Below the pieces are notes generated by a model that was not told the origin of the DNA, ran no database searches, and saw only the letters and a list, made by a program, of their open reading frames with translations. Shown in pieces: positions 1 through 57,424 of a stretch of DNA of 64,000 nt. The DNA is from Acidimicrobiia bacterium (GTDB taxonomy: Bacteria > Actinomycetota > Acidimicrobiia > Spongiisociales > ZC4RG35). Positions within the stretch are counted from its first letter, which is position 1, and every line of letters starts with the position of its first letter. A program made the position numbers and the translations under genes. Location: positions 34,201 to 98,200 of the forward strand of contig JBGTHP010000039.1 in NCBI GenBank assembly GCA_041746105.1, written 5' to 3'.

Positions 1-1799
1 AGTCGTGACACCGTGTGCTTCTCCATGTACTCGGACATGTCGAGCTGTATCAACGCGTCCTCGTCGCCAAAGAGGAAAGCGGTCAACGCCTTGGCGGTCT
101 CGGTCTTGCCGACACCGGATGGTCCAAGAAAAATGAACGAGCCTGAGGGGCGCTTCGGATCCTTGAGTCCGGCCCTGGTCCGACGAATCGCCTTCGAGAC
201 GGCCACGATGGCGTCGTGCTGGCCGATTATCCGCTCGTGCAGTTCCTCCTCCATCTTGACCAGGCGGGCGGTCTCTTCCTCGGTTAGGCGATGAACCGGG
301 ATACCGGTCCATTGCGCGAGAACCTGGGCGATCTCTTCCTCGTCTATGACCCAAGTCGAGTCCCCACCTTCTTCGATGAGCCTTCTCTCGACAAGTGAGC
401 GGTCAGCTGTCAGGGTCTTTTCTTTGTCCCGCAGCTGGGCGGCCCGCTCGAACTGCTGGGCCTGGACCGCGTCCTGCTTCTGCTGTCGGACGTCGGTCAG
501 TTGCCGATCGATCTCGACAAACTCGGGATTGTTGCCGGAGCGGCTGATCCGCATGCGGCTGCCTGCCTCATCGATGAGGTCGATCGCCTTGTCGGGCAGG
601 AAACGGTCAGACAGGTAGCGGTCGGCGAGATTGGCGGCAGAAACGATGGCCTGTTCCGTGAAACGGACAGAGTGATGCGACTCGTAGCGGTCCTTGAGTC
701 CCAACAAGATCTGAATGGTGTCTGCAATGGACGGTTCCTCGACCTTGACCGGCTGAAAACGCCTCTCGAGGGCAGAGTCCTTTTCGAGATACTTGCGGTA
801 CTCCTCGAGTGTCGTCGCCCCGATCGTCTGCAGCTCGCCGCGAGCCAGCATCGGCTTGAGGATCGAAGCGGCGTCGATCGCACCCTCGGCGGCGCCGGCA
901 CCGACCAAGGTGTGAATCTCATCGATGAAGATGATGACGTCGCCGCGAGTTTTGATCTCCTTCAAGACCTTCTTCAATCGCTCCTCGAAGTCGCCTCGGT
1001 AGCGCGAACCTGCCACGAGGGCACCGAGATCGAGGGTGTAAAGCTTCTTGTTGGTGAGCGTCTCGGGAACATCGCCTGCGACGATGCGCTGGGCAAGACC
1101 TTCTGCGATGGCAGTCTTGCCGACACCGGGCTCGCCGATCAGCACAGGGTTGTTCTTGGTGCGCCGAGAAAGAACCTGCATGACTCGTTCTATCTCACGG
1201 GTGCGGCCGATCACAGGATCGAGCTTGCGCTCACGCGCCGCCTGCGTCAGGTTGCGTCCGAACTGATCGAGGACGGTCGAGCCCTGCCCGCCTGAAGACG
1301 AAGACTCCCTGCCGGAGGATGACGAGGAGGACGAGGACTGCGGGTCGTCGCTCGAGCCACTGCTGGGACTCGAAAGAAGCTGGATGACCGTTTGTCGTAC
1401 TTTTTGCAGCTCCGCGCCCAACTTTTGGAGAACCTGCGCGGCGACACCTTCCCCCTCACGAATGAGGCCGAGAAGGATGTGTTCTGTCCCGATGTAGTTA
1501 TGCCCAAGTTGGAGTGCTTCTCGCAGCGACAGTTCGAGGACCTTCTTCGCCCTGGGGGTGAAAGGAATGTGGCCCGTCGGAGCGGTCTGGCCTTGACCGA
1601 TGATCTCGACGACCTGCTCACGCACTCCGCTGAGACTTATCCCGAGACTCTCGAGCGCCTTGGCGGCCAAACCTTCGCCCTCGTTGAGGAGACCGAGGAG
1701 TATGTGCTCGGTTCCGATGTAGTTGTGGTTGAGAAGTCGGGCTTCTTCTTGGGCGAGCACTACGACTCGTCGGGCCCGATCGGTGAACCGTTCAAACAA
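1..1799 (-). CDS. clpC: ATP-dependent Clp protease ATP-binding subunit ClpC, N-terminal ~600 aa. The C-terminus runs off the left edge. Probable TTG start at 1799 giving [21 protein letters not shown].
   Basis: The reverse complement of 1741-1800 translates to [19 protein letters not shown] (ClpC N-domain). The reverse complement of ~900-945 gives [15 protein letters not shown] (Walker B). The + strand ORFs 13..294 and 501..1295 are antisense images of Walker A/B. No stop lies inside the window, so the gene is absent from the ORF track. Confidence 0.85.
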
Positions 1800-1963: not shown

Positions 1964-2953
1964 ATGGCCGATCTGGCGGAACTGGTACCCATCCCCCGAG
2001 TGTGGGAACGAATGGAGCGCGTCGAACAGCGCCTGTTCGAGGCGACCACGTCAGGCGACGAACGGCTGACCGAGATCTCACAACATCTTCTCAACGCGGG
2101 CGGAAAGAGATACCGGCCGGTGCTTGCCCTCCTCGCCGCCGAGCTGGGCCCGAGTCCGGAACACCACCCGGTCGAAGCGGCAGTAGCGGTGGAACTGATC
2201 CATGTCGGGAGCCTCTATCACGACGACGTGATCGACGAGGCGGACACCCGTCGCGGTGCGGCCAGCGCCAACATCAACTGGACCAACACGGTCGCGATCC
2301 TGGCCGGTGACTTCCTCATGGCTCGCGCCTCGGAGACGGCGGCAACCCACCTCAGCCAAGAATCGGTCAGGCTTCTGGCAGCAACCTATGCCGAGTTGGT
2401 CGAAGGCCAGACCCGCGAACTCGGACTCGACTACGACCTCGACCACTCGGTGGGCGCCTACGAACACGTCATCTATCAAAAAACCGCCAGCCTGATTCGG
2501 ACCTCCGCCCGGCTGGGGGCGATTGCGGCCGGGGCTTCCGATCCAACGGTCGAAGCCGTGAGTACCTGGGCGGCAGAGGTGGGGATGGTGTTCCAACTCG
2601 CCGACGATGTCCTCGACCTCATCGCAACCTCGGACGTGCTCGGGAAACCCGCTGGATCGGACATCAGGGAAGGCAAATTCACCCTGCCCGTCCTGCTGGC
2701 GCTGGCAGGCCCGGAAAGCGAACGCGTGAGAAAGCTCCTCAAAGAGCCCATCCCCTACCGCGACGCCGCGGTCGATGAGGTCATCGAGATCGTACGCGGC
2801 GGCGGGTATTCGGGTGGCGCCTTGGCCGCCGCCCGTCAGCGGCTCGAAGTGGCTCGAAGCGCGATCGCCGGATTGGGAACACCCGAGGTGAGAGCCGTTT
2901 TTGAGCGAGTTGGATCGTATCTGGTTGACCGAGTCGAAGCGCTCGAATCCTGA
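1964..2953 (+). CDS. trans-polyprenyl diphosphate synthase (GGPP/heptaprenyl-type, IdsA family)
   Basis: 329 aa. First aspartate-rich motif is LYHDDVIDEADTRRG and second is FQLADDVLD. KRYRP and GKPAGSDIREGKFTLP are conserved. Confidence 0.85.
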   Translation: MADLAELVPIPRVWERMERVEQRLFEATTSGDERLTEISQHLLNAGGKRYRPVLALLAAELGPSPEHHPVEAAVAVELIHVGSLYHDDVIDEADTRRGAASANINWTNTVAILAGDFLMARASETAATHLSQESVRLLAATYAELVEGQTRELGLDYDLDHSVGAYEHVIYQKTASLIRTSARLGAIAAGASDPTVEAVSTWAAEVGMVFQLADDVLDLIATSDVLGKPAGSDIREGKFTLPVLLALAGPESERVRKLLKEPIPYRDAAVDEVIEIVRGGGYSGGALAAARQRLEVARSAIAGLGTPEVRAVFERVGSYLVDRVEALES

Positions 2954-2996
2954 GAAACAACTCCAGTCAGAGGGTTGAGGGGCCGAAACCCTCAGC

Positions 2997-4439
2997 ATGG
3001 ACCTTCAGTCCTTCTTCAGAGATGCAGTAGCCGCACAAATCAAGGAACTCGAGGTCGCGATCGACCTTCCTCCCGATGCTCCCGAGGTTGCCAACGCCCG
3101 GCGCGTAGCGCATTCGCTCAAAGGTTCCGGCACCACGTATGGATACCCGGAGATATCGCAGGCGGCCGCCGTCACCGAACAAGCCTCAGATGCCAGTTTC
3201 AGCAAGTCGGTGGAGTCGCTGATCGAGGTGTTGACCAAAGCGATCGAAACGGACTCCAAGGTGGCGGTGCTCGTGGTCGACGACGATCCGGTTTTCGGCG
3301 AGATGCTGGTGGCCAAGTTGTCGAGTCCCCTCCTCAGGGTTGAACACGTCGGCTCGCGGGCCGAGGCCGAATCCCATCTGGACAATTCCCAGCCACAGGT
3401 GATCGTGCTGGACCTCTTCCTTCCCGACGGAGATGGCCGCGATCTCCTCGCCCAACTGGTCCAATCCCGTCCCGGTCTCACTGTCATCGCCACCAGTGCC
3501 ACGGACTCGAACGAGCTCCGGGATGCGGTCATGGCCGCCGGCGCCACTGCGTTTCTCACCAAACCGGTGAACATCAGGGCCCTCACCGATCTCGTCGAAC
3601 AGCTTCTCCGCCAGCGGGCAGAGGGACGCCACACCCGCGACCCGCTCATCGAGGTCTATGACGACCTTCGACGGACCGCTCCGACCGTGACCGTCGCATC
3701 AATCGTCCCCGAATTGCACGGGCCGGGCGGGCTCGATCGGCGCAACGACTCCAGTGTTCTCGACGACATGGTCAACGCCCTCGACGAACTGTTGCCGCCC
3801 GACATCGCAATCGGAAGGTGGTCGCCCACCGAACTGATCGGATTCACCGATGGAACGTCCCAAGAACTCCTCGAGACTCTCGATCGGGCTCGGCTCCGGC
3901 TGAGGAACCGGCTACAGCAGCCGGACGGTTCCGTCGCAACCTTCTCCGCCGGGGTTGCGCCCGGCAGCTCGAGCCTGCTCGATTCGTACGGACACGCCCG
4001 GGAGGCCGCCAGTGCGGCCGCGGCCGGCGGCGGCGACAGAGTTGTTCTCGCCAGCTCCACGGGCAGGGCCAACACCGTCCTCCTCGCGGAAGACGATCCA
4101 CTGACCGCGGCACTGGTGGTCCACCGTCTCGAGCGAGAAAGCCTCGACGTCACACACTGCACCGATGGCCTCACCGCCATCGAAATCGCATCCCAGCGAG
4201 AGTTCGGACTGATCATTCTCGACATCCAAATGCCGGGTCTCGACGGTTTCGGGGTGCTGGCGGAGCTCAGACAACGACCGGCCTATTTGGAGACTCCCAT
4301 CATCATCCTGACGGCGGTCGGCAGCGAACGTGATGTCGTGCGCGGTTTCGAACTCGGGTGTGACGACTATGTGCTCAAGCCTTTCAGCCCGGCCGAACTG
4401 ACGGCCAGGCTCAGGCGATTCACCAGGAAGGCCGTATGA
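2997..4439 (+). CDS. hybrid signalling protein: HPt - REC - degenerate GGDEF - REC
   Basis: 480 aa. N-terminal HPt motif AHSLKGSGTTYG. REC1 has VLVVDDDP...VLDLFLPDGDG...TKP. The middle domain aligns to GGDEF but carries RWSPTELIGF where RYGGEEF is expected, and keeps the C-terminal VATFSAGVA...GGGDRVV signature. REC2 has VLLAEDDP...ILDIQMPGLDG...KPF. Confidence 0.7.
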   Translation: MDLQSFFRDAVAAQIKELEVAIDLPPDAPEVANARRVAHSLKGSGTTYGYPEISQAAAVTEQASDASFSKSVESLIEVLTKAIETDSKVAVLVVDDDPVFGEMLVAKLSSPLLRVEHVGSRAEAESHLDNSQPQVIVLDLFLPDGDGRDLLAQLVQSRPGLTVIATSATDSNELRDAVMAAGATAFLTKPVNIRALTDLVEQLLRQRAEGRHTRDPLIEVYDDLRRTAPTVTVASIVPELHGPGGLDRRNDSSVLDDMVNALDELLPPDIAIGRWSPTELIGFTDGTSQELLETLDRARLRLRNRLQQPDGSVATFSAGVAPGSSSLLDSYGHAREAASAAAAGGGDRVVLASSTGRANTVLLAEDDPLTAALVVHRLERESLDVTHCTDGLTAIEIASQREFGLIILDIQMPGLDGFGVLAELRQRPAYLETPIIILTAVGSERDVVRGFELGCDDYVLKPFSPAELTARLRRFTRKAV

Positions 4440-4813
4440 AGTTCCTCTTCTGCGACGACGACCCCGTGATTCGGTACCTCCTCGAAATCCTTCTGGCAAA
4501 GCGGGGAGGCCACGAGGTAGTCCCGGTAGCCGACCCGTTCAAAGTTGTCGCCAATGCGATCGCCAGCGAACCCGACATGATCCTCCTCGATTACGTGATG
4601 CCTGGCATGACAGGACTGCAGGTCGTAGAGAGCCTGAGGGCGCACGATGAGACATCCAACACACCGGTTGTGTTTCTCACCGGCCGCTCCGACATCGCCG
4701 ATGGGCCGTCGCTCGATGCTTTGGGAGTCATGGGCGTCATCGAAAAACCCTTTGACACCGCCACCTTCATCGACCGCCTGATCGCCATGGCCGGTCGCGC
4801 CGCCACTCGCTGA
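4436..4813 (+). CDS. single-domain response regulator (CheY-like receiver)
   Basis: 125 aa. FLFCDDDP, LLDYVMPGMTG and EKPF motifs. Start overlaps the upstream stop (ATGA). Confidence 0.8.
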   Translation: MKFLFCDDDPVIRYLLEILLAKRGGHEVVPVADPFKVVANAIASEPDMILLDYVMPGMTGLQVVESLRAHDETSNTPVVFLTGRSDIADGPSLDALGVMGVIEKPFDTATFIDRLIAMAGRAATR

Positions 4814-4872
4814 TCTCCTTCATCCGAAGCGGATTACGCCGACAGGGTTGGTGACCACCAACTGGAGCACAT

Positions 4873-5520
4873 GTGGCAGGGTCCGCCCTGGTTGAAGCCA
4901 AGACGAGTCGCAACGGGAGCTACCATGCCGGTTCTGCGCGTGCGAGCTCGCTCAGTCGCCACGACTATCGGACTCCGTCGAAATTCACGGCGGCATTCGT
5001 CAGGGAATTCGACGACTTCCACAAAGAATTCATGGCAGTGCTGTCACAGCGCTACACCCGCGAACTCAAATCGCAGATAACTATCGAGCACCTCAGCACC
5101 GAGCAGCTCACGTATGACGCCTACGTCCGCTCCATGCCCAATCCAAGCCTTCTCAACATCTTCGAGTTGGCCCCGCTTCCAGGTCGCGTCGTCTTCGAGA
5201 TGAGCCCCCAACTCGGGTTGGTTCTGGTCGATCGCCTCTTGGGTGGCCGCCCTGGCCGACCGGTCTCGCCGCGACCGCCGACCGTTCTCGAACAGACTCT
5301 GCTGACCACTCTCACCACCCACCCGATGGCAGCTTTCCAGGCCGCCCTCAGCCTGTTGGTCGACGTCGACCCACAGTTGGTACACACCGAGTTGAATCCT
5401 CAGTTCGCCCACGCCGCCATTGGCGGCCCTGGCACGTTTTCCGGGAGCCGTGTCATCTGTCTCCTCAACGCCCTCGTATTGGGTGCCGAAGAAGCCACGC
5501 ATCGCCATGAGCGCCTCTGA
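4873..5520 (+). CDS. fliM: flagellar motor switch protein FliM, N-terminal and middle (CheC-like) domains only. The C-terminal FliN/SpoA domain is missing.
   Basis: YDAYVRSMPNPSLLNIFELAPLPGRVVFEMSPQLGLVLVDRLLGG aligns with the E. coli FliM segment YHEFARNLPVPTNLNLIHLKPLRGTGLVVFSPSLVFIAVDNLFGG. The ORF stops at 5520 where a complete FliM would carry ~90 more residues. The 3' end overlaps the fliA region 4 on the opposite strand. Confidence 0.65.
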   Translation: MAGSALVEAKTSRNGSYHAGSARASSLSRHDYRTPSKFTAAFVREFDDFHKEFMAVLSQRYTRELKSQITIEHLSTEQLTYDAYVRSMPNPSLLNIFELAPLPGRVVFEMSPQLGLVLVDRLLGGRPGRPVSPRPPTVLEQTLLTTLTTHPMAAFQAALSLLVDVDPQLVHTELNPQFAHAAIGGPGTFSGSRVICLLNALVLGAEEATHRHERL

Positions 5521-6184
5521 ACGGATCTGGGAGACCCTGGCCTCGGTGAGTCCGAGATCGCCCGCAATGTCTTGAAGGAGTTCCCCTTCGAGGTAGTACC
5601 GAGAGATGACTTCGGCCTGGACCGCCGGCAGATTGCGAATCGCCTCTACCAATGTGCCTCGCATCTCGCGCTGCTCAAGGGCGAACTCCGCAAGAAAATC
5701 CGCACGCTGCTCTTCGACCCGGTCGACGAGAGGGGAATCCTCGCCCTCGCTCTGCTGGTCCAGATGAAGCAGGGTCGAAGTAGTTGCCTGAGCCTGACGC
5801 CTGCTCAGTTCGGCGATGCTGATTCCGAGGAAAGATGCAAAGTTCTTCTGCAACCGGGGTCTTGCCATGCTGCTCTTCCAGACCGGACTGGGCCTGCTGG
5901 ATGTCACGAATATTGCGCCGGACCGAACGGCTCGCCCAATCTCGGGTCCTCGTGCTGTCGATGATGGCGCCGCGAATACGAATTGCGGCGTGCCGTGCAA
6001 AAGGGATGCCGGACTCCGGATCAAAGCGACGGCTGGCCTCGACCAAGCCGAGAGCGCCTGCGTTCCACAACTCGGCTCGGTCCACGTGACGTGGATAACG
6101 GGCCGAGACCTCGGCGACAATGTGGCCGACGAGATCCATGTTGTCGGTCACAAGCTGATTCTGTTGGTGGCTTGTGAGGCTCAT
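5461..6184 (-). pseudogene. fliA: flagellar sigma factor FliA/WhiG (sigma-28 class). A 1-nt indel at ~5838-5840 splits regions 2 and 3-4, and there is no in-frame stop after region 4.
   Basis: Frame A (ORF 5675..6184) carries region 2, LVGHIVAEVSARYP...ELWNAGALGLVEASRRFDPESGIPFARHAAIRIRGAIIDSTRTRDW. The frame of ORF 5044..6120 carries regions 3-4, LGISIAELS...LPAVQAEVISRYYLEGELLQDIAGDLGLTEARVSQIRSEALMAMRG. The join occurs at GAAGAACTT-T-GCATC, where one extra T in a T3 run breaks EEL/ASFLGI. The region-4 frame then stays open to 5044, fully antisense to fliM. Confidence 0.7.
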
Positions 6185-6389
6185 GTTTCCCTACTCCTAC
6201 GATGCGGTTTCGATTCGCTGTGGTAATCGGGAAACCGGCGATCAATCCTTGAGGACCATTTAGAAATAGTCATTGGGTTGTCGGGGGAAACGCTTAACCA
6301 CCCTTTCGACGGGCCGACCACGCCGGCCGCGGTGCACGATCTACCAATTCACGACTTGACCGAAGCCGATTGGGGCGGACAGGAGAATC

Positions 6390-6833
6390 GTGACCATCAC
6401 ACACAATGCTCTCGCCGCACCCACGATCGACAAGCTGGTGGCTTTGCTCAACGGCGAAAGAAAAGTCCTCGAGCAACTGCTTTTCAGGATCACCGAATTC
6501 GAGTTGTTGCTGGCCGGCGCAGAACACCGGTTTGTCGCGAAGTCGCTCGACGAAATCGACCACGCCGAGAACGATCTCGCCATGTATGAGTTGAGCAGGG
6601 CGATTGTGGTCGAGACGCTGTTGCCACCCAACGTCCCACCAACGGCTACATCCCTCTTGGACATCTGTGCCGATCACCCCCAGTTGATCCGGGCGCTCGA
6701 TGACCTCAAAAGACTCGTTGCCGCCATCGAGCACGGACGCGAGCGGTGTCGCCGGCTCTCGCAGGAAAGAGTGGAAAAAGTCGGCACGGCCGAGCGCCGC
6801 CTCCAGCATCAGGGATTCGGCCCCTACGGCTGA
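6390..6833 (+). CDS. FlgN-like flagellar export chaperone family protein, paralog of the gene at 11193..11705
   Basis: 147 aa with GTG start and an AGGAGA Shine-Dalgarno. Shares the [12 protein letters not shown] motif (compare ERRLLEQLLFKL in the second copy). Helical and acidic. Divergently placed from fliA. Confidence 0.4.
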
Positions 6834-7072
6834 TTGGCGTCACGACGTCTGAGGACCATCCCTCTGATCGCCTCCGCCCCGTCCACCGCATCTACCACCG
6901 CGGCCTGGTTTTCAGCAGTCACCTGTCGATAAATCTCGGCGCGATGAACCGCCAGAGAACGCGGTGCATCGATCCCAATTCGGATCTGACCACCACGAAC
7001 CTCGAGCACCGTGACCACGACGTCGTTACCGATGACGATGGCCTCGCCGACCTTCCGTGTCAATACGAGCAT
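6824..7072 (-). CDS. csrA: carbon storage regulator / translational repressor CsrA
   Basis: [54 protein letters not shown] start at 7070-7072, internal to the longer ORF 6824..7279. Confidence 0.9.
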
Positions 7073-7161
7073 CCGGCAACGATACATGGAGGACAGGGCC
7101 CCCCGGCGGATAACGTTGGACCGATCAAACCGGCAACGGTTACGCGAGAGTTGGCGAACAG

Positions 7162-8301
7162 CTACATATCGGTTTCGGTGACAGTGGATGCGACTCGGGG
7201 GTCGATGCCGAAAATGTGGACGAGGTCGGCCGGTTCTCGGATCGGGCCCGTTGGAAGATGTCGCGAGTCCCAGGCGCATGCCGCCGCAATCAGCTGCGCC
7301 TCAGGAGTGCTGGCCCGGCCCATGTAGCCGGATTCGCGCAGTAGCGGACTGTCGGCGATGCCGCGTTGCCTCGGCAGAGTGGCCACCATCCTGACGAGTT
7401 CATCGTTGTGATTCACTCCGCTGCACCGGAACTCGGTACCGCCGAAAGTGAGCGAATGCAACCACGACGCGGCCTCAAGGCGCGACCGGTCCTTTTCCGG
7501 GAGGTGAATCGAGTGTTGACGCACGATCTCCACCATCCGTTCGGTGTGACCGGGGTTTCGCCCATCTCGCTCGGCCGAGATGATCCTGGCCTGCGCTTCG
7601 AGTTGGAGGGCGGCCCCGTGTTCCCGAAACCACGACCTGATCGCTTCTGTGTAGAGCGCTGCTGCCGCTATCGCTGGCAGGAGAGCCCACGAGGTGGTTG
7701 CGGGCACTGCCCATGCGAATGCAACCGCACCAGCGGATACGCCGATATCGCGGACCTGAGCCTTCCAGTAGTCGGCGCCTCCGGGCCAACGGTCATAGAG
7801 CAACCTCACGGAGATGGCGGCGAGCGGATAGTTGACCAGGACGCCGATCGCAGTCACTGCGGCCGCTCCCATCAGAACCAGCACCAGGTTTTTTGCGACC
7901 ACATCGACGGTCGGGGCGGCAGATATCAGTGCACCAACCACCAGCCATCGCGTCGACAGAATCCCATCGTTGAGAGCACAGAGCCTCCAGCCCTGCCGCC
8001 TGACCGCGGCCCACGCGATCAGTTTGGCCTGTATGACCAGCACGATCGGCGCCAACGGTCCGGCGACGAAACCGGTCGCCATCATGATCGGCGTGGAAGG
8101 GTCCAAAACAAATCGGTTCGGCTCCCTGACCATCAACAGCGACGACCCGACAGCCACCAACGTCAATCCGATGATTGCAAAAAACGTCGCAGGAGAAGGG
8201 ACCACAACCGAGATCGATCCGCCAATACCAGCGGCGACACCGCTGAATAACACGCCCAAAAGCGCGAACACAACGGGCCGCCGCTCAGTCGATGCGGTCA
8301 T
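7162..8301 (-). CDS. polytopic membrane protein (~7 TM) with a C-terminal degenerate HD/HD-GYP-like domain (7TMR-HD-like)
   Basis: 379 aa. Hydrophobic N-terminal ~270 aa. The C-terminal segment [35 protein letters not shown] resembles H-x-ERV...AALLHDIGK of HD domains but has HS instead of HD. Lies between fliW and csrA. Confidence 0.5.
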
Positions 8302-8464
8302 ATGACCGATTCATCGGCATTTTCGTCCCGGATACTTGAGTCGGGCGATCGTTCATCCGACGCGGGTGTTGCGCACGATGACTCCCTTCTCACGATCGTC
8401 TGCCGCCCAGGACATCCCGCCTTGGGGTCATCAGACTGTAAGACGCATCGGCGTGCACGCGCGG

Positions 8465-8488
8465 GAAATCCGATTGCCGGATTTCGCA
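8465..8488. repeat. perfect 8-bp inverted repeat GAAATCCG-ATTGC-CGGATTTC in the fliW / 7TM-HD intergenic region
   Basis: Read directly from the sequence. Followed by the palindromic CGGCCGGCC and GGCCTGgtctcAGGCC. Confidence 0.3.
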
Positions 8489-8517
8489 CTCACGGCCGGC
8501 CTGGTCTCAGGCCGACG

Positions 8518-8934
8518 TCAACCGACGGGAATCTCTGCTCTGAGAGGGTATTCCTGGTTCGTGAGAACGATCTGGCGGCCCTTGCGAGTATGGGCGTTGA
8601 CTATGAACGGACCGAGCAAGTTCATGAAAGGGGTTGCGCCCTCAAACGAGATCGAACAGAACACCAAAGCATCTTCTGCGGCGGTGAGCTCCAGGCCCGC
8701 TTGTTCCAGGTCGGACAATTCCGGGGCGTAGTCCGGAAAAAACAGCCAGGGCACTGCAACGACCATGGCCACGTCGGGGTCGTCCATATCATGGAAGATC
8801 TGAAACTCGCCGGTCTCCACCAGATCGGTGAGTGCAAAATTGCGTGCATCAGGAAAGCCGGGAACGCCTTCGTCAAAAATCAGCACATCGCTCATTGGAG
8901 CGGCCAGGCTAGCGTCCGCTTCTGCTTCGATCAT
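8518..8934 (-). CDS. fliW: flagellar assembly factor FliW (CsrA antagonist)
   Basis: MIEAEAD...MSDVLIFDEGVPGFPDARNFAL...QIFHDMDDPDVAMVVAVPWLFFPDYAPELSDLEQAGLELTAAEDALVFCSISF...LTNQEYPLRAEI match FliW. The ATG at 8932-8934 overlaps the flgL stop. Confidence 0.85.
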   Translation of the reverse strand: MIEAEADASLAAPMSDVLIFDEGVPGFPDARNFALTDLVETGEFQIFHDMDDPDVAMVVAVPWLFFPDYAPELSDLEQAGLELTAAEDALVFCSISFEGATPFMNLLGPFIVNAHTRKGRQIVLTNQEYPLRAEIPVG

Positions 8935-9822
8935 CGCAGGAACTGGGCGAGGGAAGGCTGAAGTGATCGGGCGAGGGCCCCCTGCCCCGCCTGGTCGGCG
9001 GTTTCCTGCATCTGGAGTTCCATGATCGCCGCCGCGAGATCGGTGTCTTCTGTCTCTGACAACACAGTCCGCAGATTCACATCGTCGGCCTGGGCTCTGA
9101 ACAACGCCTGTTCGATGCGATTGAAGTGGCGCCAAGCTTGGCGCGCCCTACGAGCAGACGGTCGAGTCCGGTATGGAGATCTGCGATGGACTGGCCCAAA
9201 CCGGCCGAATCCTGGCTCTGGACCTGGGTCAGAACCGTCTCGAGAAGAGTGAACAGGTCCTGGCCGGCGTTGAACCCAAAAACCTCGCCTGCGGTGACGT
9301 TGACCTGGACCTTCTCGTTTTCGCCGATTCGCCCGGTCACCGCACCCGCGTCGCCTTGATAGGTCCAGGTACCGGCAACTTTCGCCACCGCATCACCAGA
9401 ACTGAAGCCTCCGAACAGTGGCCGGCCGCCGGTCTTGGCGTTTGCCATCGACGTGATGGAACTGAGGCGTTCCCCGACCTCGGCTGCGATGGCGATGGCG
9501 CCGTCGGGTCCACTTGTGCCGTTGCGCGCAGAGATCACCAACTCGCGTACTCGCTGGATTGCGTCACCGATGCTTCCGAGACGGGCGTCGGCGAGTTCGG
9601 CCCATTGGCGTCCGTCATCCGCGTTCTTTTTTGCCTGGGCATTGGCGGCGAGAGCGGTACGATCCGGAGCGAGCGGCTCATGCCTGCCGGGTCATCTGAG
9701 GCGACTCTGATCCTTTTGCCGGTAGTCAGATCGGTTTGGGCGCGCTCGAAGTCGTTCAGCCGATCGTTCATCCGGCGCACACCGAGATCGGTCATCATTC
9801 GATTGGTGATTCGGTTGGTCAT
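8931..9822 (-). pseudogene. flgL: flagellar hook-associated protein 3 FlgL, disrupted by two frameshifts at ~9657-9664 and ~9118-9126
   Basis: The N-terminus MTNRITNRMMTDLGVRRMNDRLNDFERAQTDLTTGKRIRVASDDPAG (ORF 9535..9822) shifts by -1 into the frame holding TALAANAQAKKNADDGRQWAELADARLGSIGDAIQRVRELVISARNGTSGPDGAIAIAAEV...RPLFGG (ORF 9077..9541). After ...VGRAKLGATS a second shift is needed to reach the conserved C-terminus NRIEQALFRAQADDVNLRTVLSETEDTDLAAAIMELQMQETADQAGQGALARSLQPSLAQFLR, which ends at the stop at 8931. Confidence 0.75.
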
Positions 9823-9827
9823 TCAGA

Positions 9828-11193
9828 TCACCTTCCCACTATCCCTGTGCGATTGATCAGGACATCCAGCATCTGGTCGACGGTTGTTATCACGCGGCCC
9901 GCAGACTCGTACATCCGCTGGTATTCCATGAGCGAGACCATCTCTTCGTCGACCGATACCCCATGGACCGACATGCGTGACCTTTCAGCGGCCTCGGCCA
10001 GACCCTGATGGGTGGCCGATGCCATGAGCAACGACGAAACGTCGCGCCCGAGGCCGGTGACGATCGATGAGAAGAAGTCGGGAAGCGACGTTGTCCCACC
10101 GGAGGCCGAAAGGCTGTTCCTGAGGTCCGCGAGTTGGGCTGCGATTCCGCCGTCAAAGTCGGGAAATGGTGGCCCCGCAGACGTGGCGGCAGCCAATTGC
10201 GCCGGATCGGTGATGGCGACGGTCATCGTCTTCGCCGGCGAGCCAGGATTGAAGGAGAACAATGGACCCCCCGGTCCGCCGGTGTGGTAGCCGCCGGCAT
10301 GGATGCCGTTCATGGCGTTGGCGAGATCCACCACGAAGGAATCCAACTTGGAGGTGAGATTGGGGAGATCGGTTGTGAAAGACTGCTGCAGTCCGCGTAG
10401 TTCGCCGCCCGGTGTCACGGCGATGCCGGATGGATGCAGGATCTGACCGGTGGACGGATCAGCGGTCAACGCCCGAGAACTCGAGCCTGAAACCAACGAG
10501 ATTCCGCCCAACAAGACCTGGACTCCGCCGAACTCGTCTCGGATCGTTCGAACTCCGATGATCGACGAAAGACGGTCCACCAACATGTCGCGCTGATCCA
10601 TCAGGTCGTTAGGTGTGCCGCGGGCGGCGCCGCTCTCGAGAATGGCACCGTTCAGATTGGCGACCTCCGCCAAGAGCTTGTTGACGTCGTCGACCTTGCC
10701 CAGGATCGAACTCTTGACCTCGGTCCGCAACGCGTCGAGTTCGCCGGCAACCTGTTGAATTCGGGAAGCCACGGCGTTGAGTTGACCGATTACACCCATC
10801 CGGGTGGCGCTGTCGTTTGGTGACAAGCTCAGTTCCTCGAACGAATTCGAAGAGTCGGTTGACTTCGACCAGGATTCCCCGGTCGGGTTCACCGAGGGCG
10901 GCCTCGGCCCTCGTGAGGAAGTTCGCCCTGATTCCGGTCTCTGATGCCCCCGAAATCGAAGCTCTCACCCTGGAATCGAGAAACTGGTCCCTCGAGCGAG
11001 AAATGCCAACAACATCGACGCCGGTGCCCACCTGACCAGAAGGCGTACTCCGGGGCATGCGGGCTCGAAGATCGACTCGCTGCCTGGTGTATCCATCGGT
11101 CGATGCGTTCGAGATGTTGTGCGAAGTTGTATCGAGCCCACGTTGCGCGGCCCGCAGACCGCTCAAAGCCACGTGTAGTGCTGTGAAATCCAT
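9828..11193 (-). pseudogene. flgK: flagellar hook-associated protein 1 FlgK, disrupted by a frameshift in the CCCC run at 10877-10880
   Basis: N-terminal frame (ORF 10609..11193) is MDFTALHVALSGLRAAQRGLDTTSHNISNASTDGYTRQRVD...EAALGEPDRG. C-terminal frame (ORF 9828..10892) is ESWSKSTDSSNSFEEL...EMVSLMEYQRMYESAGRVITTVDQMLDVLINRTG. The frames join only if one G is restored in CGGGG-GAATCC. Confidence 0.75.
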
Positions 11194-11705
11194 CAGAACA
11201 CCTCATCGATCTTGGTCGGACCTGAATAGACACTCTCGTGCCGGGTGCCGCGAGCGTCATAGACCTCGATCGGGTGCTGGCCGAGAAGCACGCCGAGAGA
11301 CTCTGCGACGTTTCCGAGGGCCAAAGACGCCAGCCTGCGGTTGTCAAGGGTCGCGTGTTCGATCTCGGTGGTTAGGCGCTGGAACTGGTCACGGTGGTCT
11401 TCGAACATGGTTCGGTACGGCTCCGGCGCCCACGACGACAAAAACCCGAGGGTGACCTTGGCCGGAGGCTGACCGATGGCGTCGGCGAGAGCATTGGCTG
11501 CAGAGCCGCGGTGAGCCTCGCCTGCACGAATCCTGGCGATGGCCGAGTCGACCTCACTCATGGCCTGGGGGACAAAACGTGCCTCGTCGGCTGCCAGCAC
11601 GAGACGCGCCGCGACCAACTTGAACAGGAGCTGTTCGAGTAGACGTCGCTCGGCCGAAAGGGTGTCGGCCAGCTCAACCAACTGGCGCCGATTCGGAATG
11701 CTCAT
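11193..11705 (-). CDS. flgN: FlgN-like flagellar chaperone, placed upstream of flgK as in flgN-flgK-flgL operons
   Basis: MSIPNRRQLVELADTLSAERRLLEQLLFKLVAARLVLAADEARF. Position and shared motif with 6390..6833. The ORF extends to 11816, but the ATG at 11705 is preferred. Confidence 0.5.
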   Translation of the reverse strand: MSIPNRRQLVELADTLSAERRLLEQLLFKLVAARLVLAADEARFVPQAMSEVDSAIARIRAGEAHRGSAANALADAIGQPPAKVTLGFLSSWAPEPYRTMFEDHRDQFQRLTTEIEHATLDNRRLASLALGNVAESLGVLLGQHPIEVYDARGTRHESVYSGPTKIDEVF

Positions 11706-11796
11706 AGCAATGCCTGTCGACCACCCGCGCCGGGGCAAAAGGTGTCGTTTTCGAAGGGCGGTCAGGGCACCGTTGTCCACTACCGTGCTGTCCACA

Positions 11797-12351
11797 ATGG
11801 ACATGGACGAGCTCAAGCAGAAACTCGAAGAAGCCGAGACCTCGCTGGCTCAACTCCGGCTCGTCATGGACGGGGTCGGCACCGTCGACCTGTCTACCGG
11901 AATCAACAATCGCAACGGGGTGCTGGAAGCAATCGAGCGCGGGCGCCGGTGGATGAATCGACGCGGTGACATGTTCGGCGTCATCGTGGTCCGCTTCATG
12001 AACATGCCGGTCATCGATCTCGACATCCCCGACCATGTTGAGTTGGTCAAACACCTTGCCGCCACAATTGGCGCAGGCGTCAGGGAAGTCGACGACGTGG
12101 GCCGGCTCGACGACATGTCGTTCGCGATTGTGCTGGCCGACGTCAAACCCGGGGCAATCAGCGTGGTGGTGGATCGTGTCATGGCACAGATCGAAGCCTC
12201 CGGCGAAACCCTTGAGCGCGCCGGCGGGGTGTTCCGGCTGGCAGCAATCGAGTTGCTCAGCAGCAGCCACTCCTCTGATGTGATCCTCGATGCCACCGAG
12301 CGCCTGCTGGCCAAGTCCGCCGACAACGGTTGGGCCGGCGCCCAGCTCTGA
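11797..12351 (+). CDS. degenerate GGDEF-domain protein (DDMSF replaces GGDEF) with a short N-terminal coiled coil
   Basis: TGINNRNGVLEAIERG...GVIVVRFMNMPVIDLDIPDHVELVKHLAATIGAGVREVDDVGRLDDMSFAIVLADV...ERAGGVFRLAAIELLSSSHSSDVILDATERLLAKSADNGWAG aligns along a full GGDEF fold. The active-site GG(D/E)EF reads DDMSF. Confidence 0.6.
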   Translation: MDMDELKQKLEEAETSLAQLRLVMDGVGTVDLSTGINNRNGVLEAIERGRRWMNRRGDMFGVIVVRFMNMPVIDLDIPDHVELVKHLAATIGAGVREVDDVGRLDDMSFAIVLADVKPGAISVVVDRVMAQIEASGETLERAGGVFRLAAIELLSSSHSSDVILDATERLLAKSADNGWAGAQL

Positions 12352-12429
12352 GCCGCCGACACCAGTCGGCCGGTGCCGACGGTTCGCGAAAAGCATTTAT
12401 TACGCACCAGACGAGCCGACAGGTTCGAA

Positions 12430-12690
12430 ATGATCCGGCTGCACCGCATTCGCGGCGAAGAGATGTTTCTCAATGCCGACCTCATCGAATCGATGGAGGT
12501 CACTCCCGACACCGTGCTCACGCTCATCGATGGGCGGAAAATGGTGATCGCCGATGACCCCAATGTCGTTGTCGATGAGATCGCGCGGTTCAGGGCTCGA
12601 GTTTTGTGCGCCGCAGATGAGATGCGCAGCGGCGGCGGGACGGCCGCCGAAGTGGTGCGTTTGGTCCGGTCGGAACCCGAGTCGGACTAG
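12430..12690 (+). CDS. flbD: flagellar protein FlbD
   Basis: MIRLHRIRGEEMFLNADLIESMEVTPDTVLTLIDGRKMVIADDPNVVVDEI matches the FlbD consensus MIKLTRLNGSEFYLNPDLIEFIEATPDTVITL.NGKK. Start taken at the internal ATG at 12430. Confidence 0.7.
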   Translation: MIRLHRIRGEEMFLNADLIESMEVTPDTVLTLIDGRKMVIADDPNVVVDEIARFRARVLCAADEMRSGGGTAAEVVRLVRSEPESD

Positions 12691-14189
12691 GCCTCCGGAC
12701 GGAGCGTCGGAAACAGAATCACCTCGCGGATATGGGTCTGATCGGCCAGGAGCATCACGATGCGATCGACCCCGATCCCAAGCCCTCCTGTCGGAGGCAT
12801 CCCGTGCTCCAGGGCCAGGAGAAAATCCTCATCCACCGGGTGGGCATCGTGGTCGCCAACGGATTTCGAATGAGCCTGCGATTCGAAGCGTGCTCTCTGG
12901 TCCACTGGATCGTTCAACTCCGAGAATGCATTGGCGTATTCGGCTCCAGCGATGAACAGTTCGAACCGCTCCGTCAGCTCTGGATCGTCTCGGTGGCGTC
13001 GGGCGAGTGGAGAGATCTCGACCGGATGATCGATGACAAAAACGGGTTCCCAGAGTGTGTGTTCCACCAACTCGTCGAACAACGCCTCGATCAATTGACC
13101 GGTGGTCCACTCCGGCTTCCAGTCCACGCCAGTGCGGTCGGCAATCAACCTGAGGTTCTCGACCTGCGGCGCCGGCCACACCGATTCGCCAACCACGTCC
13201 TCCACCAGGTCGACCATGCGGGCCCGCCGGAATGGAGGGTTGAGATCGAGGACCTTTCCCCGGTATTCGATGACGGTCCGACCAATGACGGTCTCGGCCA
13301 GATCGGCCACCATCACCTCGAGCATTTCCATGATGTCGCCATAGTCGGCCAGGGTCTCGTAGGACTCGAGAGTTGTGAACTCCGGGTTGTGGGTGGCGTC
13401 GACGCCTTCATTGCGAAAGACGCGCCCGATCTCGAACACCCGATCGATACCTCCGACTATCAGCCTCTTCAGGTGCAACTCTGTGGCGATCCGCAGAAAC
13501 ATGGACTGGTCGAGCGCGTTGTGATGGGTGACAAAAGGTCTCGCCAGTGCGCCGCCGGCCTCGAGTTGGAGTATGGGTGTTTCTACCTCGACGTATCCGC
13601 GGTCCTCGAACAAAGCCCGCAGCCTCGATATCACTTTCGCCCGAACGAGCGCAACCCGCCGGGCCTCCGGATTCATCATCAAATCGAGATAGCGGCGCCG
13701 CGATCGAGCCTCGACGTCTTGAAGGCCATGCCATTTGTCGGGCAGCGGTTGCAGCGCCTTGGCAAGCAACTGAAAGGTCTGGACCTTGACCGAGAGTTCC
13801 CCTTTCTTGGTTGTGACGATCTCTCCGGTGGCACCCAACCAGTCACCGAGATCGAGATCTTCGAAACGTTCGAACTCTGCTTCTCCGATTTCGGCTTTCG
13901 AGCACATCAGCTGGATCCGACCGGATCCGTCGTCGACGGTCGCAAACACCAGTTTTCCAAAACTCCGGTGAAGCATCAGACGTCCGGCGACGGAAACGAT
14001 CTCACCGGTGGCGGCCCCCGGTCCCAAATCGGGGAAGCGGTCGTGCAACTCACCGGCACGGCCGTCCCGTGCAAAACGCGGTGGATACGGATCCACCCCG
14101 CTCGCCCGCAACCGCTCGAGCTTTGCCATCCGAGCCGCGACCAGTCGATGCTCGCCGGCTTCTTCCTGATCTGGGGGTTGGGGTTCCAT
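12687..14189 (-). CDS. lysS: lysine--tRNA ligase (class II)
   Basis: 500 aa. N-terminal OB-fold anticodon-binding domain and class II catalytic motifs. GLGIGVDRIVMLL near the C-terminus. Confidence 0.95.
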   Translation of the reverse strand: MEPQPPDQEEAGEHRLVAARMAKLERLRASGVDPYPPRFARDGRAGELHDRFPDLGPGAATGEIVSVAGRLMLHRSFGKLVFATVDDGSGRIQLMCSKAEIGEAEFERFEDLDLGDWLGATGEIVTTKKGELSVKVQTFQLLAKALQPLPDKWHGLQDVEARSRRRYLDLMMNPEARRVALVRAKVISRLRALFEDRGYVEVETPILQLEAGGALARPFVTHHNALDQSMFLRIATELHLKRLIVGGIDRVFEIGRVFRNEGVDATHNPEFTTLESYETLADYGDIMEMLEVMVADLAETVIGRTVIEYRGKVLDLNPPFRRARMVDLVEDVVGESVWPAPQVENLRLIADRTGVDWKPEWTTGQLIEALFDELVEHTLWEPVFVIDHPVEISPLARRHRDDPELTERFELFIAGAEYANAFSELNDPVDQRARFESQAHSKSVGDHDAHPVDEDFLLALEHGMPPTGGLGIGVDRIVMLLADQTHIREVILFPTLRPEA

Positions 14190-20391: not shown

Positions 20392-22314
20392 TCAGTGACG
20401 GGACGGCTCGGTCTGCTCAGCAGCAGCAATTCCACCGTTGCTCTGGGCAGATTCACCGGGCAGTTGAATCCGCAAGGAGCCGCTGTTGACATGCTCCCAT
20501 TTCGGGACGTCAAAGAGCAGCTCGGCCAGTTCGTGGCGATCGATCGTCTCGCGTTCGAGCAGCGCTTCGGCCAGTCGGTCGAGCGAGCCGCGGTGGGTGC
20601 TCAGGATCTGACGGGCCTCTTCGTGAGCTGCCGTAATCAACGCCCTGACCTCTTCGTCGATCTTCGAGGCGACATCGTCCGAATAGTCGGCCTGGCGGTT
20701 GTAGTCACGTCCAAGGAAGACCTCGCCACTGGATTGACCATATTTCATCGGTCCCAGCAGGTCGCTCATCCCGTACTCCATCACCATTCTGCGAGCAGTA
20801 CGTGTTGCCTTTTCGATGTCATTGGAGGCCCCGGTCGAAGGATCCGAGAACACGATCTCCTCTGCAGTACGTCCGCCGAGCGCATAGGCAAGTTCATCGA
20901 CCATCTCGCTTCGACGCTTGTAATACCGGTCTTGAGTCGGCAGGGCCAGCGTGTACCCGCCGGCTCGCCCGCGAGGAATGATGGTGACCTTGTGGATGGG
21001 ATCGACGTTGGGCAGGGCAAACCCCACCAGAGCGTGACCGCCCTCGTGATAAGCGGTGATACGGCGCTCTTCCTCGGTGACGATTCGTGATCTTCTTTCA
21101 GGTCCTGCGATCACTCTGTCGATCGCCTCGTTGAGTTCATCCATCCCGATCTGCGTCTTGCGGCGGCGCACCGTCAACAACGCAGCCTCGTTGATGAGGT
21201 TGGCCAGATCGGCACCGGTGAATCCTGGAGTCCCTCGCGCCACCGACTCGAGATCGATGTCGTTGCCAAGAGGTTTTCCCTTGGCATGGACATCGAGAAT
21301 TGCGTGACGTCCCTTGATGTCGGGGCCGTCGATGGTGATCTGGCGATCGAAACGTCCTGGTCTCAAAAGAGCTGGATCGAGAATGTCTGGTCGGTTGGTG
21401 GCAGCCATGACGATGACACCCACATTTGCCTCGAAGCCATCGAGCTCGACCAATAGCTGGTTGAGCGTCTGCTCTCGTTCGTCATGCCCTCCGCCCAGGC
21501 CGGCGCCACGGTGACGGCCAACCGCGTCGATTTCGTCGATGAAAATAATGGCCGGAGCCGATGCCTTCGCCTGTTCGAACAAATCTCGAACACGAGACGC
21601 TCCGACACCTACGAACATCTCGACAAAATCCGATCCGGAGATCGAGTAGAAGGGAACACCGGCCTCGCCGGCAACCGCCTTCGCCAACAGGGTCTTGCCG
21701 GTTCCGGGGGGACCAAACAGCAACACACCCTTGGGAATCTTGGCTCCCATCGCCCGGTACTTGTCGGGGTGCTTGAGAAAATCTCTGATCTCTTCTAGCT
21801 CTTCGATTGCCTCTTCGAGACCCGCCACTTCCTTGAACGTGACTTTGGGTTGGTCCTTTGACACCGTCTTGGCCTTGGCTTTGCCGAACTGCATCACCCG
21901 GTTTCCAGAACCCTGCATCTGGGTGAAAAAGAACACCATCAGACCGATCAAGATCAGCCACGGGAGAAGCTGCAACAAATAGTCGGCAAAACCCGGCGGC
22001 TGGTTGTCGACTCGATATTCCACGCCTGCGGCATCGAGGCGATCTTCGACGGATTCGCCAAAACGGTCACCGATCTCCACGAAGAAATCGACTCCATCGG
22101 CCGCCGCCGACGAATCGACGTAACGGCCCTCAACTCGTTCCGAGCGGTTCAGAATTGTGACCGACTCGACCTTGTCAGCCTCGATTTGTTCGTAGAACTG
22201 GTTCAGTGTCAGCTCTTCTGGACCCGCAACCTGACCAAGCCATTGTGAAGCGGACACCACGAGCACACTGATGACAAGGCCATACACGAGCAACGTTCTA
22301 AGAGATCGATTCAC
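20392..22314 (-). CDS. ftsH: ATP-dependent zinc metalloprotease FtsH (copy 1, syntenic with folE/hpt)
   Basis: 640 aa. [45 protein letters not shown] zinc site. Confidence 0.95.
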
Positions 22315-22407: not shown

Positions 22408-22833
22408 TCATTCGATCGTGCCCTCGACCACACCGACGAATGGCAGGTTGCGGTACTTGCCGGCGTAGTCCAACCCATATCCCACGACGAACTCGGGTCC
22501 GATATTGAACGCCGCATATTTGACATCGATCGGAACGCGTTGGATTCCCTCCTTGACGAGCAGCGCAGCGATCTCGAGCGACGCAGGTTTTCTCACCTTG
22601 AGGCTCTTCATCAGATAGTTGAGGGTGAGGCCGGAGTCGATGATGTCTTCGACGATGAGGACATCTCTGCCGGCGATTTCCTGATCGAGGTCTTTGAGAA
22701 TCCGAACCACGCCAGATGTCTGGGTTGACGCCCCATAAGACGAGACCGCCATGAAATCGAATTCCATCGGGATGTCTATCTTGCGGGCGAGGTCAGCCAT
22801 GACCATGAACGCGCCCTTGAGGACGCCGACCAC
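22408..22833 (-). CDS. hpt: hypoxanthine-guanine phosphoribosyltransferase. The annotated GTG start truncates the conserved N-terminus. The frame stays open upstream to ~22940 without a canonical start.
   Basis: VVGVLKGAFMVMADLAR...VLIVEDIIDSGLTL. The upstream in-frame translation (22834-22935) reads SLISAREIDEKLTEVGAQISADYRGKDLL, the normal Hpt N-terminus. No ATG/GTG/TTG occurs there, only CTG/ATC. Confidence 0.85.
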   Translation of the reverse strand: MVGVLKGAFMVMADLARKIDIPMEFDFMAVSSYGASTQTSGVVRILKDLDQEIAGRDVLIVEDIIDSGLTLNYLMKSLKVRKPASLEIAALLVKEGIQRVPIDVKYAAFNIGPEFVVGYGLDYAGKYRNLPFVGVVEGTIE

Positions 22834-54232: not shown

Positions 54233-54592
54233 CTATGGCGTCCATTCAGCCCGAGCCGAAGCTCGAACCTCGCTCGCCGGGATCAGCCAGCGCTCCACTC
54301 TTATTGCCACTTCCACGACAACAATCCTGGGCGTGGGCGAGGGGTCGACGTCGCACTCGCAGCGCACCAGGTGGGCGCCGTTGGCCTCGGCATATCGAGA
54401 GGCCTCGAGGTGGGGGTCACTAGAAGGATCAACCGTTGCGGCCGCAGCCGCCAGAGCAGCCGCGTCGGCGGCAACGCCCGCTTGAAAATAGGTGTCGGTC
54501 AACCGGGCCATGTCCGCTGCAGCAAACCCGACTGCCAGCACCAGCGGCAGAAGGGAGGCAGCCAGCACGGACGCCGATCCGCGCTGCGTCAT
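54233..54592 (-). CDS. TadE/TadG-like pilus assembly protein
   Basis: ASVLAASLLPLVLAVGFAAADMAR N-terminal pseudopilin-like helix. Position in the Tad locus. Confidence 0.6.
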   Translation of the reverse strand: MTQRGSASVLAASLLPLVLAVGFAAADMARLTDTYFQAGVAADAAALAAAAATVDPSSDPHLEASRYAEANGAHLVRCECDVDPSPTPRIVVVEVAIRVERWLIPASEVRASARAEWTP

Positions 54593-54951
54593 AGCTCAAC
54601 TCTCATGACCGCCCTCGCCCTCATCGCCACGCTGAACACATCCAGAAGAGGGGTGACCAGCGGCTTTTCGAGATTGAGAACAACCTCGGCAGGCTCTCCT
54701 ACGACCGAAGGACGGCGGACCGTTATCCCGACCAAAGCAGCCAATGATGTAGGAAGGGCCTCTCGAACTGCCGCGGCGGCGGCCGAAGGGTCGGGAACGG
54801 TGGCTGCGACCCGCGCTCCTTCCCGGGCCGCAGCCACCAGATCCAGATGGGTCATCACCGCCGAAGTCACCTCTAGCGCAGCGACGGCCACCAAAAGCAC
54901 CACCGGAATAACCAATGCCGCTTCGACGGTGAATGACCCGCGCTCTGTCAT
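54589..54951 (-). CDS. TadE-like pilus assembly protein
   Basis: ERGSFTVEAALVIPVVLLVAVAALE TadE motif. Confidence 0.65.
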   Translation of the reverse strand: MTERGSFTVEAALVIPVVLLVAVAALEVTSAVMTHLDLVAAAREGARVAATVPDPSAAAAAVREALPTSLAALVGITVRRPSVVGEPAEVVLNLEKPLVTPLLDVFSVAMRARAVMRVEL

Positions 54952-55154: not shown

Positions 55155-55210
55155 CAACGCTCCTTTCTCATTCCGGCGTCCGGCCGGAGACGGGGGGAAG
55201 CAAGATCGAA

Positions 55211-57401: not shown

Positions 57402-57424
57402 GACCAGCGACACCAGGCGGTCGG

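Follow-up and report, generated by a model that had tools for sequence, protein, structure and literature searches.

The segment between clpC and lysS in an uncultured Acidimicrobiia bacterium (Spongiisociales; ZC4RG35) is very probably the recently inactivated remnant of an ancestral flagellar/chemotaxis cluster that lay between clpC/polyprenyl synthase and lysS. The DNA studied here, hereafter the window, is a stretch of 64,000 nt (GenBank assembly GCA_041746105.1, contig JBGTHP010000039.1, positions 34,201-98,200, forward strand), and the block in question occupies window positions 1964-12690. Four of its genes, fliM, fliA, flgL, and flgK, are disrupted, the first two by a deletion that fuses them tail to tail and the last three by four single-base indels. 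Among the 24 core flagellar genes of Liu and Ochman, i.e., the criterion adopted by Zhu et al. (mBio 2023; PMC10746217), only these four are found in the window, and all of them are disrupted. The loci of relatives used for comparison are labeled L001-L033; L001 represents the GCA_041567715.1 group (lysS side), and L005 and L008 are the lysS side and the clpC side, respectively, of ERR14788467.

Lesions in fliM, fliA, flgL, and flgK

The lesions have been mapped by alignment and tblastn against intact orthologues from relatives, where FlgK has 454 aa, FlgL 289-297 aa, FliM 311-322 aa, and FliA 289 aa; the window copies are split or truncated. The fliM remnant (4873-5418, plus strand; open reading frame (ORF) 4873-5520) retains codons 1 to ~181 of ~315. 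It matches positions 2-152 of the 192 positions of the Pfam FliM profile and contains no FliMN_C domain; it lacks the last part of the middle domain as well as the FliN-like C-terminal domain. The remnant departs from 14 full-length FliM sequences after the residues NPQFAHAA. At the DNA level, the match to the fliM gene of the nearest relative (L008) ends at 5417/5418 and the match to the fliA genes of relatives ends at 5422/5423. These homology end-points from both sides delimit the deletion junction (5419-5422), at which the convergent fliM' and fliA' remnants are fused tail to tail, joining fliM codon ~181 to fliA codon ~254. The fliM gene itself is not frameshifted.

The fliA pseudogene (5423-6184, minus strand; ORFs 5044-6184) carries an additional T at 5839 that separates region 2 from regions 3-4, the Sigma70_r2 and Sigma70_r4 domains being encoded in different frames. 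A tblastn search with L001 FliA recovers residues 1-136 and 115-254 in two frames, and residues 255-289, i.e., the last ~35 codons and the stop codon, are missing. The flgL pseudogene (8928-9822, minus strand) has lost one nucleotide at 9659/9660 and another at 9123/9124; the Pfam Flagellin_N domain that corresponds to the FlgL N-terminus maps at 9535-9822, and L001 FlgL aligns by tblastn in three pieces. The flgK pseudogene (9828-11193, minus strand) has gained one nucleotide at 10845-10848, where the window reads GAAT and relatives encode Asp (e.g., GAT). Its Flg_bb_rod domain (N-terminus) lies in one frame at 10609-11193 and its FlgK_D1 and Flg_bbr_C domains in another at 9828-10892, in agreement with a tblastn match split into residues 1-117 and 117-454. 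Neither flgL nor flgK contains any other stop, and once the four indels are removed flgK, flgL, and fliA are translated without further interruption.

The deletion junction coincides with a perfect 6-nt inverted repeat, GCCGCC-ATT-GGCGGC (5413-5428), which is built from Ala-Ala codons of fliM and, on the opposite strand, of fliA.

A first-pass annotation of this DNA had listed fliM, fliA, two flgN-like genes, csrA, fliW, flgL, flgK, flbD, and HPt/REC genes, a list that the Pfam profiles confirm, and had placed every disruption in flgK, flgL, fliA, or fliM. The disruptions are real and confined to these genes, but that of fliM is the end-point of a deletion and not a frame indel. The position proposed for the fliA indel (5838, here 5839) and the flgL ranges were right, but the one proposed for flgK (10877-10880) was ~30 nt off.

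The ancestral cluster in related Acidimicrobiia

The nearest relative is represented by the Logan assembly of ERR14788467, whose FlgK and FliM are 73% and 81% identical to those of the window. On its lysS side, one contig carries the order coaX-lysS-flbD-184 aa-flgN-flgK(454)-flgL(297)-fliW, and on its clpC side, another contig carries clpC'-polyprenyl synthase-HPt/REC(483)-REC(125)-fliM(315)-fliN(283). A group of metagenome-assembled genomes (MAGs) deposited in NCBI (GCA_041567715.1 and others; FlgK 63% identical to the window) extends both sides. Its lysS side reads ...panC-coaX-lysS-flbD-184-flgN-flgK-flgL-fliW-csrA-184-fliA(289)-HDOD-aldehyde dehydrogenase-64-276-flhA-flhB, and its clpC side, located on other contigs, reads clpC'-polyprenyl synthase-HPt/REC-REC-fliM-fliN-HD_5/HD protein-258 aa. 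Ten more Acidimicrobiia loci, taken from the genomes of species representatives and from a JGI metagenome, share the arrangement clpC-polyprenyl synthase-HPt/REC-REC-fliM-fliN, and the clpC-side order recurs in L011-L019, L026-L031, and L033. In L012, fliN is followed by cheW, a gene for an HD protein, and two flagellin genes.

The nearest relatives contain, in matching positions, intact flgK (454 aa), flgL (297 aa), fliM (315 aa), and fliA (289 aa) genes. Hence, on the sequences compared, the disruptions are specific to the window lineage, in support of the lineage-specific decay suggested by the first-pass annotation. Since the halves of the block adjoin clpC and lysS, respectively, in relatives, they are ancestral neighbors of these genes in the clade, and the window differs from the relatives by its missing interior. 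The GCA_041567715.1 contigs hold ~11.9 kb past fliA codon 254 and ~4 kb past fliM codon 181 that are absent from the window, and thus the deletion would amount to at least ~16 kb, assuming that the two contigs do not overlap. The FliN, HD517, HDOD, aldehyde dehydrogenase, and FlhA proteins of the relatives have no tblastn match anywhere in the window. The FlhA proteins of relatives were also used to search metagenome contigs for a bridge between fliN and flhB, and only distant taxa were retrieved (at most 53% identity, universal FlhA motifs).

We propose that one deletion excised the DNA between mid-fliM and a point close to the 3' end of fliA, a stretch that in the relatives includes fliN, cheW, a gene for an HD-GYP-type protein, flagellin genes, flhB, flhA, a gene for an HDOD protein, and more. 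The four single-base indels that broke flgK, flgL (twice), and fliA may have arisen later or at about the same time. With fliM, fliA, flgK, and flgL dead and the interior gone, the locus would be unable to support flagellum assembly, and the whole organism may have lost its motility.

Apart from this, L012 contains a gene for an Stf0-type sulfotransferase (L012 18038-19042, plus strand) directly 3' of its two flagellin genes, which may hint at flagellin modification in the clade.

Genes of the block that remain open

The remaining genes of the block are uninterrupted. The first one after the polyprenyl synthase gene encodes an intact 480-aa signaling protein with the architecture HPt-REC-(~140 aa with no assigned domain)-REC (2997-4439, plus strand; Pfam Hpt and two Response_reg domains). 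This protein is 81% identical to the 483-aa orthologue of L008, and its nonsynonymous rate (dN) is not raised on the window branch. It is followed by an intact gene for a single-domain, CheY-like response regulator of 125 aa (4436-4813, plus strand; Pfam Response_reg), whose orthologues sit immediately 5' of fliM in most related loci. Beyond fliA, an intact gene encodes a FlgN-like protein of 147 aa (6390-6833, plus strand) with a weak Pfam FlgN match (26.5 bits, below the cut-off); it is 55% identical to its L001 orthologue, which is the product of the '184-aa' gene beside fliA in relatives. An N-terminal loss in this FlgN-like gene was considered and ruled out by comparison of start codons, the longer call in the relative being an over-extension.

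On the minus strand, the genes csrA (6824-7072; Pfam CsrA, E = 9e-25; product 81% identical to L001 CsrA), fliW (8518-8934; Pfam FliW, E = 3.6e-28; full-length product 81% identical to the L005 orthologue and 64% to that of L001), and flgN (11193-11705, ORF to 11816; 170 aa, Pfam FlgN, 39.3 bits; 74% identical to L001 FlgN over its full length) are intact. All five families of the set flgN-flgK-flgL-fliW-csrA are therefore present on one strand and in the same order as in L001, with one extra gene between fliW and csrA; flgK and flgL are split, and flgN, fliW, and csrA are full length.

Two small genes on the plus strand precede lysS. The first one (11797-12351, ORF from 11539) is intact, and its product (184 aa) combines a coiled coil at the N-terminus with a truncated GGDEF-like region and is 74-85% identical to the L001 and L005 orthologues. 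Its GGDEF scores stay below the cut-offs (20.5 bits vs. 23.8 and 19.6 vs. 37.4). This gene is kept between flbD and flgN in the window, in L001 (8832-9386), and in L005 (2910-3464), and it may be an unrecognized flagellar accessory gene of the clade. The second one is flbD (12430-12690, ORF from 12373; 86 aa, intact; Pfam FlbD, E = 1.9e-21), whose product is 82-88% identical to those of relatives and whose stop codon overlaps that of lysS by 4 nt, as it does in L005.

Between fliW and csrA, the extra gene (7162-8301, minus strand) specifies a membrane protein of 379 aa that matches no Pfam profile. Its family is rare: among 1.84 billion proteins, just 16 representatives were found. Common to the family are the motifs GHTERV, AAWxHSLxxGGxPxRCxG, and AAACAWDSR, which resemble an HD pattern with HS substituted for HD, and two of its members bear an N-terminal receiver domain. 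Thus, of the GGDEF and HD labels previously attached to the block, neither reaches a Pfam cut-off, the 184-aa protein being sub-threshold and the 379-aa protein without match, but the HD label finds some support in the motif seen in the family alignment. In L001-L004 and L022, fliW and csrA are adjacent, and only in the window lineage does the 379-aa gene part them; it is the sole addition to a locus that has otherwise suffered losses. The closest homologue lies on a 1.35-kb contig without gene context. We also asked whether the 379-aa protein might be a relocated version of the HD_5/HD protein encoded after fliN in relatives, but the similarity was not significant (E = 0.33-4), and this possibility was dropped.

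The 379-aa gene is preceded by a weak sigma-28-like motif, TCAA-N17-GCCGATGA (8311-8339, minus strand), whose end lies 10 nt from the gene start. A scan of the window and the relatives with the sigma-28 consensus found no conserved sites and nothing comparable upstream of the flagellar genes. Scans for repeats (6700-8700 only), sigma-70 promoters, and terminators around the block gave nothing above chance.

Age of the decay and fate of the open genes

The age of the decay was addressed with codon alignments of the window (W), its nearest relative (E), and the NCBI MAG group (G), in which synonymous sites are saturated (dS 1-3). The ratio of dN on the W branch to dN on the E branch was 0.85 for FlgK, 0.88 for FlgL, and 2.0 for a 174-codon piece of FliM, and it ranged from 0.48 to 1.41 in intact genes. 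At sites invariant in about ten other homologues, private changes in W and E numbered 4/144 and 3/143 in FlgK, 5/94 and 1/90 in FlgL, and 1/56 and 1/56 in FliM, respectively. Relaxed selection, for which we looked for a raised dN, changes at invariant sites, and extra stops, was not detected in the broken genes. The absence of internal stops and of an excess of amino-acid changes suggests that the decay is very recent and has only just begun.

The open small genes (flgN, the FlgN-like gene, fliW, csrA, flbD, and the GGDEF-like gene) and the HPt/REC pair may be working or may just not have been struck yet. The first-pass annotation had argued for the selective retention of regulators, which is possible, but the analysis does not demonstrate it. 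According to this explanation, motility was lost and csrA, fliW, flgN, flbD, the HPt/REC pair, the GGDEF-like gene, and the inserted 379-aa gene are actively kept for other regulation. It is in agreement with the observation that all 8-9 candidate ORFs are open, with a window-branch dN as low as in the motile-type relative, and that a new signaling-type gene has appeared between fliW and csrA. Moreover, if the HPt/REC genes are counted, the chance that all 4.3 kb received no indel is ~0.02 by our own arithmetic. However, dN is equally low in the broken genes, whose invariant sites show no excess of changes, and therefore the low dN of csrA, fliW, flgN, flbD, and the HPt/REC genes is uninformative about their present constraint. 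Furthermore, for the six small, strictly flagellar ORFs (2.4 kb vs. the 3.0 kb struck), the chance of being spared by four random indels rises to ~0.09, calculated in the same way. In Bacillus subtilis, FliW antagonizes CsrA unless it is bound to flagellin, and if that system is taken as a guide the FliW-CsrA pair would have no obvious input without flagellin. On balance, we regard active retention as unlikely, although it is the likeliest of the alternatives considered.

A more elaborate version, in which FliW-CsrA, FlgN, FlbD, and the HPt/REC phosphorelay are kept as a rewired post-transcriptional/signaling module with the 379-aa HD-like protein as part of the rewiring, seems to us quite improbable. 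If it were true, the module could control, for instance, the intact Tad pilus genes described below or surface attachment.

The block is not an inserted island

The first-pass annotation had described the block as replacing lsr2. In Mycobacterium tuberculosis H37Rv, the order is clpC1-lsr2-lysS-coaX-panC...folK-folB-folP-folE-ftsH-hpt-tilS (Rv3596c-Rv3625c), clpC1, lsr2, and lysS being adjacent, and the window has 10.7 kb of other genes in that place. It is nevertheless very improbable that an island, acquired horizontally or relocated, displaced lsr2 from between clpC and lysS. In numerous MAGs of related Acidimicrobiia, the halves of the block adjoin clpC and lysS, respectively, and the proteins are 44-88% identical; no relative has lsr2 at the clpC-polyprenyl synthase site; what the window contains is a deletion and not an insertion. 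The G+C content is uniform, 0.59-0.64 across the block and its flanks, without any break in composition. No mobile-element genes, flanking tRNA, or repeats (the latter within 6700-8700) were found, the sole tRNA being at 26522, 14 kb away. In short, the block is neither missing from this site in relatives nor marked by deviant composition, mobility genes, or tRNA genes at its borders.

The borders themselves are conserved. On the left, clpC (3-1790, minus strand) is represented by its 5' part, an uninterrupted frame that runs off the start of the window and encodes the Clp_N, AAA, AAA_lid_9, UVR, and AAA_2 domains; its product is 86-89% identical to the ClpC encoded beside the same genes in L011-L019. 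The intact polyprenyl synthase gene (1964-2953, plus strand; PF00348, E = 2.9e-64) is not flagellar but a conserved neighbor of clpC, found in the equivalent place in L008, L026, and L011-L019. On the right, lysS (12687-14189, minus strand) is intact (Pfam tRNA-synt_2 and OB fold) and followed by coaX, and its neighborhood is syntenic with L001-L005. The backbone of the window runs clpC, lysS, coaX, panC, folK, folB, folP, folE, ftsH, hpt, tilS. These genes thus keep the order found in M. tuberculosis, but the window and the related MAGs are without lsr2 and have a flagellar cluster, or its remnant, in the clpC-lysS gap.

The lesions are not sequence artifacts

The source of the window is a contig of MAG type (122,030 bp), and a cluster of four single-base indels in a span of 5 kb might initially raise doubts. 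Thus, we have considered that the frameshifts and the fliM-fliA fusion could be sequencing or assembly errors in genes that are really intact. Three Logan contigs from two runs, covering 5.5 kb, are 100% identical to the window: L006 (SRR28170472) over 4013-6275, L007 (SRR28170461) over 4331-5633, and L032 (SRR28170461) over 8819-10782. They reproduce the junction (L006 and L007), the fliA indel (L006), and both flgL indels (L032), leaving only the flgK indel uncovered. Among the called products of the Logan assemblies of two runs are the FliM stump of 215 aa and the FlgL fragment of 153 aa, and truncated FlgK and FliM products are recorded in both NCBI and Logan. Exact look-ups of LysS and of FlgL and FlgK fragments taken from our own ORFs found no record, matches being obtained only for products as called in the database. 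The indels are not located in long homopolymers either; their contexts are GAAT, ATC|GT, ACT|TC|AAT, and CTTT, the longest run being TTT.

The distribution of the lesions leads to the same conclusion. The remaining ~50 kb of the window was checked by tiling ORFs according to codon usage, which left short gaps, and by Pfam profile coverage of essentially every ORF; a GC3 frame plot, tried as a homology-free frameshift finder, was dropped in their favor as too noisy at 60% GC. Eight small ORFs had no Pfam match; in the others, the profiles were covered almost completely. No split gene was detected outside the flagellar block, where the local rate would predict dozens; this is in line with the intactness reported in the first-pass annotation. 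If frameshifts fell at random, the chance that all four would be confined to ~3.0 kb, with the remaining ~55 kb of coding sequence free of them, would be ~(3/57)^4 = 8e-6 (our own arithmetic), which is incompatible with random error, as the first-pass annotation had argued from the clustering. Taken together with the identical Logan contigs, this makes an artifact highly improbable. Programmed frameshift sites or phase-variation switches that keep the genes expressed can be dismissed with near certainty, given that nothing speaks for them except the clean resumption of the frames past each indel, that the indel sites lack slippery heptamers and repeat tracts, that the orthologues are uninterrupted, and that the 3' ends of fliM and fliA are deleted too.

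Some points weigh against a recently inactivated remnant, or at least against parts of this interpretation. The flgK indel lies 63 nt past the end of L032 (10782), and its support comes from a 354-aa C-terminal FlgK product in Logan and NCBI only. The Logan assemblies may share samples with the deposited MAG; assembler error is excluded by them, but a minority-strain consensus is not. No single contig of a relative spans the region from clpC to lysS, and the continuity of the cluster as well as the size of the deletion derive from separate MAG contigs joined together. Finally, the evidence covers 64 kb of a 122-kb contig, and a second, intact flagellar set could be present elsewhere in the genome.

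Other features of the window

The other genes of the window include panC, folK/B/P/E, two ftsH genes, tilS, topA, and those for an H+-PPase, PolX, a helicase, a type II glutamine synthetase, and a Tad pilus. In agreement with the first-pass annotation, ORF tiling and Pfam detected no flagellar, motor, export, chemotaxis, or chemoreceptor families in the 64 kb outside the block. The sole irregular gene outside the flagellar block is hpt (HPRT), with an ORF at 22408-22833 in a region that reaches 23031 (minus strand). Its homology extends ~33 codons 5' of the first ATG/GTG/TTG (SLATINSLISAREIDEKLTEVGAQISADY...), where there is no canonical start; hpt either initiates at a rare codon or has suffered damage to its start. 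A truncation of the glutamine synthetase gene (52610-53617) was ruled out, the product being a type II enzyme of normal length.

An intact set of Tad/Flp pilus genes (54233-57590, minus strand) encodes TadE-like and Tad/TadG-like proteins, a T2SSF-type membrane protein, and a CpaF-type ATPase, and an ORF of 219 aa without Pfam match adjoins the T2SSF-type gene. A different surface appendage (Tad/Flp) thus appears to be retained while the flagellar genes decay. Two full-length FtsH paralogues are also encoded, one at 20392-22314 (minus strand), in the conserved folE-ftsH-hpt place, and the other at 45197-47146 (plus strand), 25 kb away.

Comparison with known systems

At base resolution, the window captures what would be the onset of flagellar loss in a free-living actinobacterium that has not been cultured, namely a large deletion and a few indels, before any detectable protein drift. 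It also shows that in this group of Acidimicrobiia the flagellar genes sit within the otherwise conserved clpC-lysS backbone. There is in addition a warning for annotation: gene callers report fragments of FliM, FlgK, FlgL, and FliA, and a survey based on gene presence or absence might count the genome among the flagellated ones.

The late operon of B. subtilis has the order flgM-flgN-flgK-flgL-fliW-csrA, and its products Hag, FliW, and CsrA form a partner switch. The order flgN-flgK-flgL-fliW-csrA is found in the relatives and, except for one inserted gene, in the window. However, in the window flgK and flgL are broken, the 379-aa gene parts fliW from csrA, and the 64 kb lack a flagellin gene.

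Flagellar pseudogenes are known in the recently non-motile Shigella, Yersinia pestis, and Burkholderia mallei. As in these bacteria, frameshifts and deletions are concentrated in the flagellar genes of an otherwise intact genome, and the remnants are still recognizable. Unlike them, the window comes from an uncultured environmental actinobacterium and not from a host-restricted pathogen, and the part of the genome seen contains no insertion sequences. Flagellar loss by pseudogenization is already well known, this phylum included, and the window is a clear but ordinary case that opens no new question.

For Actinobacteria, Zhu et al. (mBio 2023; PMC10746217) describe flagella as ancestral and of common origin, with flagellar clusters in 41-91% of the species of basal classes, Acidimicrobiia included, and massive losses in later lineages. 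Their survey scores pseudogenes in its presence/absence matrix, and their criterion for a flagellar regulon requires the 24 core genes present and intact, one or two pseudogenes being allowed. A keyword search of the paper gave no mention of the arrangement of the clpC-lysS locus. The window fits the general pattern, i.e., ancestral flagella that are common in basal classes and lost in many lineages. It differs from that survey in being one early-stage case at base resolution, with one tail-to-tail fliM-fliA deletion and four indels.

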